From Candidatus Latescibacterota bacterium (GTDB lineage: Bacteria > Latescibacterota > UBA2968): DNA of 64,000 bases. Position numbers and translations under genes: made by a program. Within the stretch, counting starts at the first letter, position 1; each line of letters begins with the position of its first letter. The notes below the pieces were generated by a model, which made no database searches, was not told the origin of the DNA, and saw nothing but the letters and a program-made list of their open reading frames with translations. The DNA is taken from assembly GCA_965198115.1 (NCBI GenBank), contig OZ240241.1:576001-640000 (forward strand), written 5' to 3'. Positions 4,046 through 8,690 of the stretch are shown here, piece after piece.

Positions 4046-5419
4046 GAGCTATAATCAAAAGGTGTGGAAAAAGAGAAAGGGCGACCCTACCCTTCCCGTG
4101 AGATAGTTGATTCACACAAAACCGGGTGAGAGGCCCGGTTGGGAAGGAGGATCGCCGTGAAGGAACATACGCATAGAGCCCCATTGAAGTCCATGCCGAC
4201 GTGGGAGACGGTTGACGATTGGATCCGTGAAGAGATCCAGGGCCGGTTCCAGTCCATTCTGGAGGAGGAGGCGACCGCGTTCTTGGGCCGGTCGTGGTAT
4301 GAGCGCCGAGCCGAGGTCGATAGCTCCACGGGCTACAGGAACGGCTACGGCAAGCCCCGGCGTCTCTCGACGAGCTGCGGAACGATCAAGGTCCGGCGTC
4401 CCCGGGTTCGTGGTCTGGAAGAGCGGTTTGAAAGCCGCATCCTCCTCCTGTTCGCCCGGAGAACCAGGGCCATTGGAGATCTGCTTCCCGACCTTTATCT
4501 CCACGGTCTCTCCCAGGGCGACTTCGAGTTGTCTTTGCGTGCGCTGCTCGGTGATGGCGCGCCGCTTTCGCCGACCTCGATCGCTCGTCTTCGAGGGAAG
4601 TGGGAGGTCGACTTCCAGGACTGGAAAGAAAGGCGTCTGGATAATCGCGAACTGGTCTACGCCTGGGCTGATGGCATCTACGTCAAAGCCGGGCTCGAGC
4701 GCGAGAAGGCGTGTCTGCTGGTCGTGATCGGCGCGATGAGCGACGGCAGCAAGGAGATCCTGGCGATAGAACCCGGTTATCGAGAGTCTACAGAATCCTG
4801 GCTCACGGTGCTCCGGGATCTCCGGGATCGCGGGCTCGAACATCCTGTCCTGATCGCCGCGGACGGGAATATGGGCATCTGGGCGGCCGTTGATCAGGTC
4901 TGGCCAGAGAGCCGGCAACAACGGTGCTGGAACCACAAGATCCTCAACGTGCTCGACAAGGTCGCCAAGCGTGCACAGGCTGAAGCCCGCGCACTGCTCG
5001 TCCAGATCCCCTATGCCGGCACGAAAAAGGAGGCCGAGAAGCTCCGGAAACGCTTTGCCGCACGGTATCGCTCACAGTTCCCTGCCGCCGTGGAGACGCT
5101 CGAAAGAGACTGGGATCGGATGGTCACGTTCTACGACTTCCCGAAGGAACACTGGAAACACCTGAGAACCACGAACGTCGTCGAGAGCCCCTTTGCTTCC
5201 GTTCGGCTTCGCACAAACGCCGCCAGGCGATTCAAGAAAGTCAGGAACGCCACGGCTCTCATCTGGCGTACGCTCAAGGTCGCAGAGAGCCGATTCAGGA
5301 AACTCACCGCGCCACACTTGCTACAACAAGTCTACGATCAGAAACACTCAACCGGACCGCAGGTCGAAACCGGGAAGATGGCCGCCTGATTTCTTTTACA
5401 CACCTATTGACCTGAGCTC
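4046..5419 (+). mobile_element. IS256 family element (type A), complete
   Basis: Imperfect IRs GAGCTATAATCAAAAGGTGTG / GAGCTCAGGTCAATAGGTGTG; 8-bp TSD CACGATAG at 4038-4045 and 5420-5427. Confidence 0.93.
4139..5389 (+). CDS. IS256 family transposase
   Basis: GYRNG, WADGIY, ADG, QRCWNHK, LRTTNVVES mutator-type motifs; true start may be GTG 4157 or ATG 4193. Confidence 0.93.
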   Translation: MGRRIAVKEHTHRAPLKSMPTWETVDDWIREEIQGRFQSILEEEATAFLGRSWYERRAEVDSSTGYRNGYGKPRRLSTSCGTIKVRRPRVRGLEERFESRILLLFARRTRAIGDLLPDLYLHGLSQGDFELSLRALLGDGAPLSPTSIARLRGKWEVDFQDWKERRLDNRELVYAWADGIYVKAGLEREKACLLVVIGAMSDGSKEILAIEPGYRESTESWLTVLRDLRDRGLEHPVLIAADGNMGIWAAVDQVWPESRQQRCWNHKILNVLDKVAKRAQAEARALLVQIPYAGTKKEAEKLRKRFAARYRSQFPAAVETLERDWDRMVTFYDFPKEHWKHLRTTNVVESPFASVRLRTNAARRFKKVRNATALIWRTLKVAESRFRKLTAPHLLQQVYDQKHSTGPQVETGKMAA

Positions 5420-5750
5420 CACGATAGGTAACATTGACCAAGCGGTATCACTTGCTTCGACGAGGCTCTCTCGGGCTCCGCGGCCCGGAGAGCCTTTTAT
5501 ACCAACCGCGGAAAGTGATGATAGCCCCACGGCATCGGCCGGATGGGGCTTTTTCTGTGGGGAAAACCAAGGAAACCACTGAGGACACGGAGGGGGGAGG
5601 CTGGAGGGTACGCTATGGCCCTATTCGGGGAGAGGATCGAGGTTCGGATAATTGAGGACCCGAGACAAGCCACGAAATACACAAGAAGCGCGGAAGGATT
5701 CACGATCGGTGCGATGCAGCCATGCCCCATTCAAAGGGACCACACCGCGT

Positions 5751-5964: not shown

Positions 5965-7057
5965 TGACCTGCCCCCCTGGATTGTTCCCATTCCTAAAGT
6001 TAGGATATCGGAACATAGAAAGGGGGCCGAATGGCCAGGAAGCGATACACAGCGGAGCAGATCATCGGACATCTCCGTCAGGCAGAGATTCGTATATCGT
6101 AAGGCAAGACGGTCGGCGAGGTCTCGCGTGAGCTTGGCGTCAGCGAACAGACCTATTACCGGTGGCGCAAGGAATACGGCGGTATGGAGGTCGACCAGGT
6201 CCGCCGGCTGAAGGAGCTGGAGCAAGAGAACGGGCGTCTGAAACGTCTTGTGGCCGACCAGGCCCTGGATATCTCGATTCTCAAGGAGGTGTCCCGGGGA
6301 AACTTCTGAGCCCGACGCGGCGAAGGAAGGCGGTCGGGCACGTGCGTGAGGCCCTGGCTGTCTCGGAGCGTCGGGCGTGCCGTGTGCTGGGTCAGGTGCG
6401 CCGTACCCAGCGATACACGCTCAAGGTGGCGGACGGCGAGACCGTCCTGACCGCGAACATCGTCTCTCTGGCCAGCGAATATGGACGTTATGGCTACCGT
6501 CGAATCACGGCTCTTCTTAGGACCGATGGCTGGCGGGTGAACCACAAGCGGGTGGAGCGGATCTGGCGTCAGGAGGGGCTGAAGGTGCCCGCTAGGCAGC
6601 CGAAGCGGGGTCGACTTTGGCTCAACGACGGCTCCTGCATCAGACTCAGACCCGAGCATCGTAACCACGTCTGGGCCTACGACTTCGTGTTCGATCGCAC
6701 ACGTGAAGGGAGGCCGTTGAAGTTCCTGACAGTCGTGGATGAATACACGCGTGAGTGCCTGACCATCGAGGTCGCTCGCAAGCAAACATCACGGGACGTT
6801 CTGCGGACGTTGGCGAAGCTGATGCTGAGGTATGGTGTCCCGAAACACATCAGATCGGATAACGGGCCGGAGTTTGTAGCCAAAGCGGTTCGGGACTGGC
6901 TCTCGAGGTTGGAGGTCGGAACTTTGTTCATCGAGCCGGGCAGCCCGTGGGAGAACGGATACATCGAGAGCTTCAACGGGAAGCTCAGAGACGAGCTACT
7001 CAACGGTGAGATCTTCACGACCTTGGAGGAGGCTAGGGTGTTGACCAAGTGGTGGCG
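5965..7057 (+). mobile_element. IS3 family element, 3'-truncated
   Basis: Left IR TGACCTGCCCCCC; identity to the copy at 44471-45539 stops at 7057. Confidence 0.88.
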
Positions 7058-7118
7058 AAACAATGTCACCCCGGTACGCTTCTTGGCCGGGGTCCATTCT
7101 ACTTTGCCACAACTATAG
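6031..7118 (+). pseudogene. IS3 family transposase orfA/orfB, inactivated
   Basis: orfA MARKRYTAEQII has an in-frame TAA at 6100-6102; overlapping orfB carries rve motifs (WAYDF, SDNGPEF, ENGYIESFN) and is truncated after WWR. Confidence 0.85.
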
Positions 7119-7227
7119 AAACGATCCCTAGCTACCGAGACGACCACACCAACAATGAGTTTCGTGTGTCTTTGACCTGGTGTATCAATTGGGCCCATTG
7201 AGTTCCATCCTTTCTGATCCCGAGTTC

Positions 7228-8337
7228 ATGATCACTTCCCACACAGACGTCGTTGGAAGCTTGCTCCGCCCCGACAGATTGCTGGCGGCGCGTGAGGCGT
7301 TGGCAGCGGGGGAGATGGACGAGGCTTCCTTCAGGGAGGTGGAGGACTGGGCGGTGGATGTGGCGATTCGATTGCAGGAGGAGGCGGGGCTCGAGGTGGT
7401 GACGGATGGGGAGATGCGCCGGCTGTCGTTCCAGAGTCAGATGACGGAGGCAGTCGATGGGTTCGGGGAATACGATCTGGATGCGTTCCTGTGGGGAGAA
7501 TGGAAGGGTGACGAGGCGGTAGGGGATCGAGCGATCGACCGGCCCCCCTCGTTGGGTGTCGTGAGCAAGCTCAGACGCCGCCGGCACCTGTCTACGGATG
7601 AATTCGTTTATCTCAGAGACCGCACGGATCGTGTTGCGAAGGTGACGCTGCCGAGCGCGAGTCTATGGGCGAATTTCTGGTCGCCCGAGATCAGCACCGA
7701 CGTCTATCCGACGCTCGATTCATTCCTGGCGGACGTGACAGACATCCTGCGTGAAGAGGTCGATGCGCTCGTCGGATTGGGTGCGACCTACATTCAGATC
7801 GACGCGCCCCATTACACGATGATGATCGACCCGGAGACGCGGACCTTTTACGAATCGCAGGGATGGGATCTGGAGAGGTGGTTGTCAGCCGGGATCGAGA
7901 TGGACAACGCGGTGATGGCGGGACATCCTGATGTCACCTTCGGGTTTCATCTATGACGGGGGAATCAGGGCAGCCGGTGGCTGCTCGAAGGAGACTACGC
8001 GCCGATCGCACGGGAGATCTTTACGAAGATCCACGCCCAGCGTTTATTGCTCGAGTACGACGACGATCGGTCCGGATCGTTCGAGGTATTGTCCGCCGTT
8101 CCGGATGACAAGATGGTGGTGCTGGGCCTTGTATCGACCAAGCGACCTGCGCTCGAGTCGGCGGATGCGCTCGTAGAACGTGTTCGTGAAGCTTATAATT
8201 TTTTCCCTATCGATCACATGGCCATCAGCCCACAGTGTGGTTTTGCAACGTCCGTGGTCGGGAACGCCCTCTCCCACGAAGAACAGTGGAGGAAGCTTGC
8301 ACGCGTCGTCGAAGTGGCGGGTGAGCTCTGGGGATAA
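7228..8337 (+). CDS. cobalamin-independent methionine synthase II (MetE C-terminal-like) family protein with in-frame TGA, probable selenocysteine
   Basis: VVGSLLRP, TDGEMRR, YIQIDAP, HL[TGA 7954-7956]RGN, LLEYD, LGLVSTK, ISPQCGFA. ORFs 7180-7956 and 8047-8337 share one frame, with TGA the only stop between them. Confidence 0.85.
7968..7986 (+). promoter_or_regulatory. putative bacterial SECIS hairpin
   Basis: GGGCAGCC-GGT-GGCTGCTC: 8-bp stem with one G-U pair, starting 11 nt after the TGA, with a G-initiated apical loop. Confidence 0.7.
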
Positions 8338-8690
8338 TGAAAAACCTAAACAAGCCACTGAGAACACGGAGGGTGTGAGGACGGCCGAACTATGGTAGCC
8401 CTATTCGGGGCGACGCTCTGAGGTCGCGCGAACCACCTTCCGGCGGGGCAGGATCGAACGAAAAGGCACGACGGGCGGATCATGCGGAACACTATGTGTT
8501 GGGGAGCCCCGTAGGGGCGAACGATAATAGCCGGGGGCGTAAGCCCCCGGATCATGCGCAACGACTCATTACCCGGCGCCGCGATCAGGATCGACAGCCA
8601 GGATGGATATCCACCCGGCGCCACGTGGCCGATCGTAATGACGTAATCCATTTGCCTGCCGCTCATTTCGGCGCCTAGTGGCGAATCTCA

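Follow-up and report, generated by a model that had tools for sequence, protein, structure and literature searches.

A predicted selenocysteine-containing, single-domain MetE-like enzyme in a Latescibacterota genome and its possible link to selenoneine metabolism

We analyzed a 64,000-nucleotide stretch of a Candidatus Latescibacterota bacterium genome (contig OZ240241.1, positions 576,001 to 640,000; hereafter "the window", from genome G000), focusing on a MetE-like gene at 7228-8337 of the forward strand. Translation of these positions reproduces one 369-codon frame, as the initial annotation had proposed from two open reading frame pieces: its sole internal stop is a TGA at codon 243 (7954-7956, +) in the context F-H-L-TGA-R-G-N, and the frame is closed by a TAA at 8335-8337. 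The expectation that standard annotation would call this gene a pseudogene was borne out, in that genetic-code table 11 breaks the frame in two (7180-7956 and 8047-8337) and the protein collection entry for the product ends at 242 amino acids. One contig in each of two runs (X1 and X2) spans 7100-8500 with no other letters and no gaps; because these runs come from one sample, which may be the assembly's source, their agreement is not independent support and argues only against a late assembly slip. A further run (X3) covered pieces of the window only. Upstream, an IS3-type element with an integrase core (5965-7110, +), which the genome carries in further near-identical copies, stops about 120 bp short of the gene, and a PhyH dioxygenase gene follows downstream. 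These surroundings are little informative, and a promoter search returned no sigma-70-like promoter for the gene. Overall, this annotation-broken gene is very likely an intact gene for a full-length selenoprotein with selenocysteine (Sec) at a predicted zinc-ligand site.

With TGA read as Sec, the 369-residue product matches PF01717 over residues 6-349 (60.7 bits, cut-off 21) as a single-domain MetE-like protein without the folate-binding N-terminal half. Its best PDB sequence match is the Listeria protein 1YPX (E = 1.9e-53 over residues 5-369), whose HICRGN sequence aligns on the motif around the TGA. MetE binds Zn through His641, Cys643, Glu665 and Cys726 and contacts homocysteine through Ser433, Glu484 and Asp599 (available text of PMC7857596). 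In structure-sequence alignments, these ligands correspond to His241 (7948-7950), residue 243, Glu276 of LLEYD (8053-8055) and Cys337 of SPQCG (8236-8238), and the homocysteine contacts to Ser11 (7258-7260, carboxyl-binding), Glu62 (7411-7413, amino-binding) and Asp192 (7801-7803, amino-binding), all on the forward strand. The TGA stands at the first Zn-ligand Cys position, equivalent to Cys643 of E. coli MetE. His241, Glu276 and Cys337, the other metal ligands that had been expected, are present in the translation, and all six named residues are invariant where aligned among 50 TGA-form and 133 Cys-form sequences. Seven aromatic residues (F68, W89, W92, W151, F207, Y208 and W251) are likewise invariant in the subfamily. 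In all likelihood, the Sec would serve as a Zn ligand of a thiol-activating enzyme; the Sec-ligated Zn thiol transferase first suggested for this locus is supported as a prediction from recurrence of the TGA, the ligand set and the Sec genes.

A structure model built with Cys at position 243 (pLDDT 91.8, pTM 0.92) gave 1YPX, the MetE catalytic barrel and MesD as best fold matches; by sequence, the match to the solved MesD structure 3RPD is weak (E = 2.8e-7). The protein is not a full MetE (TIGR01371), with 369 residues versus the approximately 750 of the two-barrel enzyme and 36 bits versus a cut-off of 930. It falls under the cut-offs of all seven NCBIfam models that it matched, including PRK06520 (249 versus 313) and PRK06233 (218 versus 576). 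These two models represent the short YxjG/YxjH-type "cobalamin-independent methionine synthase II family" to which 1YPX belongs, and with which the window protein shares its length and its HxCRGN, LEYD and SPQCGF motifs. Unlike that type, it belongs to a subfamily of its own with 60-70% identity, in which Sec replaces the HxC Cys in many members and which is linked to selenoneine genes. A database homologue (P0182) carries an N-terminal ACT domain.

The window protein resembles the MetE C-terminal domain and MesA-MesD in fold (TM 0.65-0.75) and in keeping the four Zn-ligand and three homocysteine positions, while it lacks the folate-binding half and shows 15-20% identity in the fold alignments. 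Unlike MesA, which is restricted to methanogens (available text of PMC7857596), its host is bacterial. It is set apart from MesB and MesC by co-occurrence rather than by sequence comparison: their partner CoFeSP (PF03599) exceeded its cut-off in 0/5 genomes, with a control genome positive. As for MesD, MesX (PF08908) was found in none of the same number of genomes, in a search whose control genomes also gave no match and which therefore lacked a positive control. None of MesA-MesD is described as a selenoprotein in the available text of PMC7857596. Judged by its residues, the protein would work like a core methionine synthase, and on the features tested it appears to lie outside MesA-D.

The Sec machinery that one would look for is present in the window's genome. 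Profile searches identified selA (565 bits), selB (347) and selD (363), all over cut-off, with selD carrying an in-frame TGA of its own, and the genome encodes a tRNA-Sec whose UCA anticodon is the only one among 74 tRNAs. TGA is otherwise an ordinary stop and indeed the main one, ending 706 of the 1244 frames that span 500 codons or more. Nine of the ten TGA-form genomes tested carry selA, and the tenth has tRNA-Sec. The same gene is found in 12 of 17 Cys-form genomes, so that selA co-occurrence discriminates weakly, Cys being evidently enough in many lineages. We conclude that the TGA at codon 243 almost certainly specifies Sec.

Downstream of the TGA, we identified a predicted bacterial SECIS element (bSECIS) at 7968-7986 (+) with an 8-bp stem, a 3-nt GGU loop (7976-7978) that begins 19 nt past the UGA, and a folding energy of -12.5 kcal/mol. 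The hairpin agrees on all four counts with a published bSECIS model, which specifies a loop of 3-9 nt with G first, a stem of 4-16 bp, a spacing of 16-37 nt and at most -7.5 kcal/mol (available text of PMC13188914). A G[G/U]U loop occurs in 56/56 distinct TGA contexts (9/9 from genomes and 47/47 from metagenomes) versus 4/19 Cys contexts, a contrast for which a Fisher p of 1e-4 is overstated because related sequences are not independent. Two loci were left out of this count, one whose Trp251 is a Tyr and was missed by the pattern (L045) and one that is too distant (L082). The loop constraint is set by the synonymous third base of Arg250, whereas across these TGA genes 51% of the codons for Arg have C or A in third position. 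Cys forms keep a mean of 5.95 of the 8 stem pairs, indicating that the protein sequence already dictates some of the pairing, while TGA forms keep 6.70-7.56. As the whole 77-nt region is no more stable than shuffled sequence (z = 0.14), the case rests on the hairpin model together with the codon constraint. Across the genome, a SECIS-like hairpin filter, defined after the window's hairpin was known, was passed by 32 of 3733 TGAs flanked on each side by 100 or more open codons, the TGA at codon 243 included. An Rfam search gave no match inside the gene. A terminator-like stem before the TGA (7927-7944) was set aside as chance-level, with 2 such stems found versus 1.1 expected.

This assembly is not alone in having the TGA, nor do close homologues all have TGY: besides the window, 10 genomes and 57 metagenome loci share the identical codon, and TGA and TGY are mixed at the site. 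Twelve of 168 genomes of the window's phylum hold a close subfamily member (3 TGA, 9 Cys), and a scan of genome contigs yielded 19 loci (9 TGA, 10 Cys), assigned to Latescibacterota, Methylomirabilis, Binatia and Tectomicrobia, among other labels. From the phylum of G171, a set of 401 sampled genomes contained two members only, both TGA, and supplied a further same-site TGA genome (G585). By comparison, 113 genomes of an actinobacterial class gave eight members, none with a stop; three of these eight are marked unpublished and are counted in that tally only. Including the window's, the TGA-form genomes total 11, with nine distinct 45-nt contexts, and neither TAA nor TAG appears at the site among members from the phylum, genome-contig and 401-genome sets. 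Every one of the 57 metagenome pattern matches is a homologue whose aligned region contains this stop and no other; the pattern requires TGA by design and is uninformative on the ratio of Sec to Cys. When we compared residues 1-242 with databases, 78 of the best 120 matches, the window's own entry among them, ended exactly at the H-x before the site, as judged from the proteins rather than their DNA. The other 42 continue past it, all with Cys.

Purifying selection is equal on the two sides of the TGA, a comparison that had been called for at the outset: in 12 disjoint pairs of TGA-form genes, codons 1-242 have a dN/dS of 0.185 and codons 244-369 one of 0.176. A quick IQ-TREE search with 50 TGA and 53 Cys sequences did not sort the two forms into separate groups: they intermingle, with 13 changes between them, of which at least two are forced by well-supported branches; many forks of this tree are open, so the number and direction of the Sec/Cys switches are not settled. 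Residue 243 alone separates Sec from Cys forms across the 50 TGA and 133 Cys sequences.

These features place the protein beside known bacterial selenoproteins, which likewise have a UGA at a conserved Cys, a 3' hairpin fitting the bSECIS model and Sec machinery in the genome. Most of the 119 prokaryotic selenoprotein families in a 2026 table are redox enzymes, and that table lists neither a MetE/PF01717 family nor SenB (PMC13188914, Table 1); the Haft and Tolstoy 2025 families were compared only as rows of it. The metal-ligating Sec residues described alongside it bind Mo/W or Ni (available text of PMC13188914), unlike the Zn predicted here. Term look-ups likewise gave no sign of a MetE-type selenoprotein in the main texts of PMC13326102, PMC12013277, PMC9312934, PMC13745706 and PMC11227280 or in the four supplements of deep-Sep. 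Literature searches returned no paper on the family, their scope leaving aside the BSepDB family list, bioRxiv supplements, subscription journals and NCBI selenocysteine annotations. We conclude that a known enzyme scaffold here carries a selenoprotein family that is real and has probably not been described before. It would add to the prokaryotic selenoproteome a family hidden by annotation, to judge from the 78 truncated entries, and would provide a natural Sec/Cys pair at the Zn ligand of a non-redox, group-transfer enzyme, with Cys orthologues of 65-70% identity as controls for what selenium does beyond sulfur at a catalytic metal.

Gene neighborhoods point to selenoneine metabolism. The neighbors most often found when 1101 flanking open reading frames from 84 loci were clustered are EgtD on the upstream side and SenA on the downstream side, both exceeding their NCBIfam cut-offs, followed by a betaine-type ABC importer. 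The subfamily gene lies within about 7 kb of egtD, senA or senB in 7/12 phylum genomes (G041, G066, G097, G098, G100, G105 and G147, with Sec and Cys forms both represented), 2/15 other genomes and 4/57 metagenome loci. In G100 and G147, senA, selD, a putative selenate ABC transporter, the MetE-like gene and egtD stand together, and G100 also has senB. Orthologues thus lie inside or beside clusters resembling the known senA-senB-senC plus egtD cluster, transporter included (available text of 10.1101/2022.04.13.486033). The cassette described there comprises three genes plus the transporter and no MetE-like gene. Within the window's phylum, a full senA occurs in 10/12 genomes that bear the subfamily, with pieces in the remaining two, versus 20/156 genomes without it; outside the phylum, senA exceeds its cut-off in 5/7 TGA genomes versus 1/8 Cys genomes. 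Most linked loci belong to one clade of the tree, and the linkage counts are therefore not independent. The window's gene is itself unlinked, standing alone with the senAB-selD and egtD genes of its genome megabases away, while its sister on the tree (L069, support 87) also adjoins senA. We saw no egt or sen link in 53/57 metagenome loci, many of them short, or in the 5/5 actinobacterial loci examined. The association suggests an accessory step that has been missing from selenoneine metabolism and may offer a function for a large, uncharacterized MetE-like subfamily. Two near-identical egtD-gene-senA loci are labeled Methylomirabilis (L066) and Gammaproteobacteria (L067), reflecting either misbinning or recent transfer.

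Inspection of the sen genes in the window's genome turned up another in-frame TGA. Its senB (selenosugar synthase; G000:C1:4006508-4007434, -; L191) carries a single one in the interdomain linker, a column occupied by TGA in 8/31 phylum genomes, by Cys in G065 and by Pro, Ala or Val in others; in G106, senB has a TGA at another position. A G-rich hairpin follows the senB TGA, the one in G000 failing the strict hairpin filter. By these sequence features, senB is a candidate for another selenoprotein missing from the lists, or it may act as a selenium gate. The selenoneine locus of this genome also contains a different, distant MetE-like gene (G000:C1:4002208-4003377, +; L170:4209-5378), about 3 kb away from senB, that is PRK04326-like but below cut-off.

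Taken together, we favor, at a probability of about 0.5, a reading of the protein as a single-domain MetE-type enzyme with a Sec-ligated Zn that converts homocysteine to methionine and may resupply a methyl cycle drained by selenoneine synthesis. SelB would bind the hairpin and insert Sec at codon 243, and a Zn(His)(Sec)(Glu)(Cys) center would deprotonate and activate homocysteine, as in MetE. Since the protein has no folate domain, the methyl donor would be something other than folate, most likely a methylated corrinoid protein. The methionine formed could then supply S-adenosylmethionine (SAM) for EgtD, which consumes three SAM per hercynine. Sec may serve to protect the Zn site or to tune it, given that the Zn-ligand Cys of MetE is known to be prone to oxidation; both this Cys and YxjG become S-thiolated under oxidative stress (available text of PMC4360819). 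The related yxjH is controlled by a Met T-box and co-transcribed with luxS (available text of PMC6004538). The window's genome also encodes a stand-alone B12-binding-domain match, a MetH match with a frameshift and seven other MetE-like matches; with the MetH match and these seven already present, an extra dedicated methionine synthase is not obviously needed. The metH gene (G000:C1:2498967-2502486, -) exceeds its cut-off, and its frame shifts near residue 900 and near the end, from either an assembly indel or decay of the gene.

Other chemistries on the same scaffold have to be weighed against this reading. The initial annotation had left methyl and alkyl transfer side by side; homocysteine methylation is favored over epoxyalkane:coenzyme M (CoM) transfer by the kept homocysteine residues and the egtD/senA neighborhoods. 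Epoxyalkane:CoM transferase uses the same Zn-thiolate scaffold, and a real selenoprotein that alkylates another thiol in this manner, its selenoneine neighborhood incidental, would accord with the presence of ComA in 3/5 TGA genomes tested and of sulfopyruvate-decarboxylase-like genes, below cut-off, downstream at two loci (L098 and L117). We regard this as unlikely: the Ser, Glu and Asp for amino-acid binding never vary, neither alkene monooxygenase nor CoM genes adjoin the gene in the loci scanned, and ComA was not found in the other 2/5 genomes. In the main rival reading, which we hold to be doubtful, the enzyme is a real selenoprotein that acts directly on selenoneine, ergothioneine or hercynine in methylated form. 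Its Zn-bound homocysteine would receive, for salvage or repair, a methyl group donated by Se-methyl-selenoneine, S-methyl-ergothioneine, hercynine or a similar onium; alternatively, the enzyme would methylate a selenol. Such a role would suit a gene placed between egtD and senA, with a betaine-type importer following, and found inside full senAB-selD-selenate ABC-egtD clusters. The invariant aromatics could bind a trimethylammonium group, and the protein has no folate domain, nor was a Wood-Ljungdahl donor found in five genomes; at one locus (L101:4840-5463), a gene for an MttB-like trimethylamine methyltransferase lies directly upstream of a TGA copy. Weighing against it, many members lack an egt or sen neighbor, and histidine-lyase and ergothioneine-breakdown genes were absent among the 90 + 89 + 18 neighbor proteins scanned.

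The remaining alternatives concern the UGA itself. Sec and Cys might be interchangeable and the UGA mainly a selenium gauge, allowing the enzyme, and downstream senA by polarity, to be made only when selenium is plentiful. The interspersed forms on the tree with no other residue separating them, the senB TGA at a non-conserved linker position in 8/31 phylum genomes and the place of the gene directly upstream of senA in several loci would all agree with such a gauge, which we nevertheless find improbable: the TGA sits exactly at the invariant Cys, as in catalytic selenoproteins, and no sen gene follows in the window or in most TGA loci. A nonsense pseudogene or an assembly error might be suspected in a genome rich in insertion sequences, with an IS256-type element at 147 near-full copies and a frameshifted metH, all the more as TGC or TGT becomes TGA by a single change. 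This explanation is largely refuted by the recurrence of TGA at this codon in 10 further genomes and in 57 metagenome loci, with TAA and TAG never seen there in the genome sets, by a downstream dN/dS of 0.176, by the synonymous loop constraint and by contigs that match the window. It is equally hard to credit that UGA is read as Cys, Trp or another residue through an altered code or a near-cognate tRNA. Cys would be tolerable at the site, being what all database homologues that continue past it have, but TGA ends 706/1244 long frames, the only UCA tRNA is tRNA-Sec, and only TGA forms show the SECIS-type loop constraint.

Beyond the favored homocysteine methylation, we tentatively raise a broader and rather speculative possibility, namely that the protein is a widespread, unlisted Sec-Zn selenoenzyme and an unrecognized member of the selenoneine pathway, either recycling Se-methylated selenoneine or supplying the methyl groups of selenoneine. 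In the window's phylum, selD, senB and the MetE-like gene can all carry UGA. If this broader possibility holds, the pathway to a selenium antioxidant would itself consist of selenoproteins, with selenium supply acting as its gate.

Mobile and intergenic elements surround the gene in the window. An IS256/Mutator-family element at 4139-5389 has 147 near-full-length copies in the genome, the best more than 99.8% identical, indicating a large and recent expansion. Two similar short intergenic stretches (5563-5638 and 8342-8418, 81-86% alike and 2.78 kb apart) bracket the IS3-type element and the gene, with one further copy elsewhere in the genome. After the gene, an intergenic Acido-Lenti-1 RNA at 8505-8550 (-) scores 54.3 bits in Rfam, above the gathering score.
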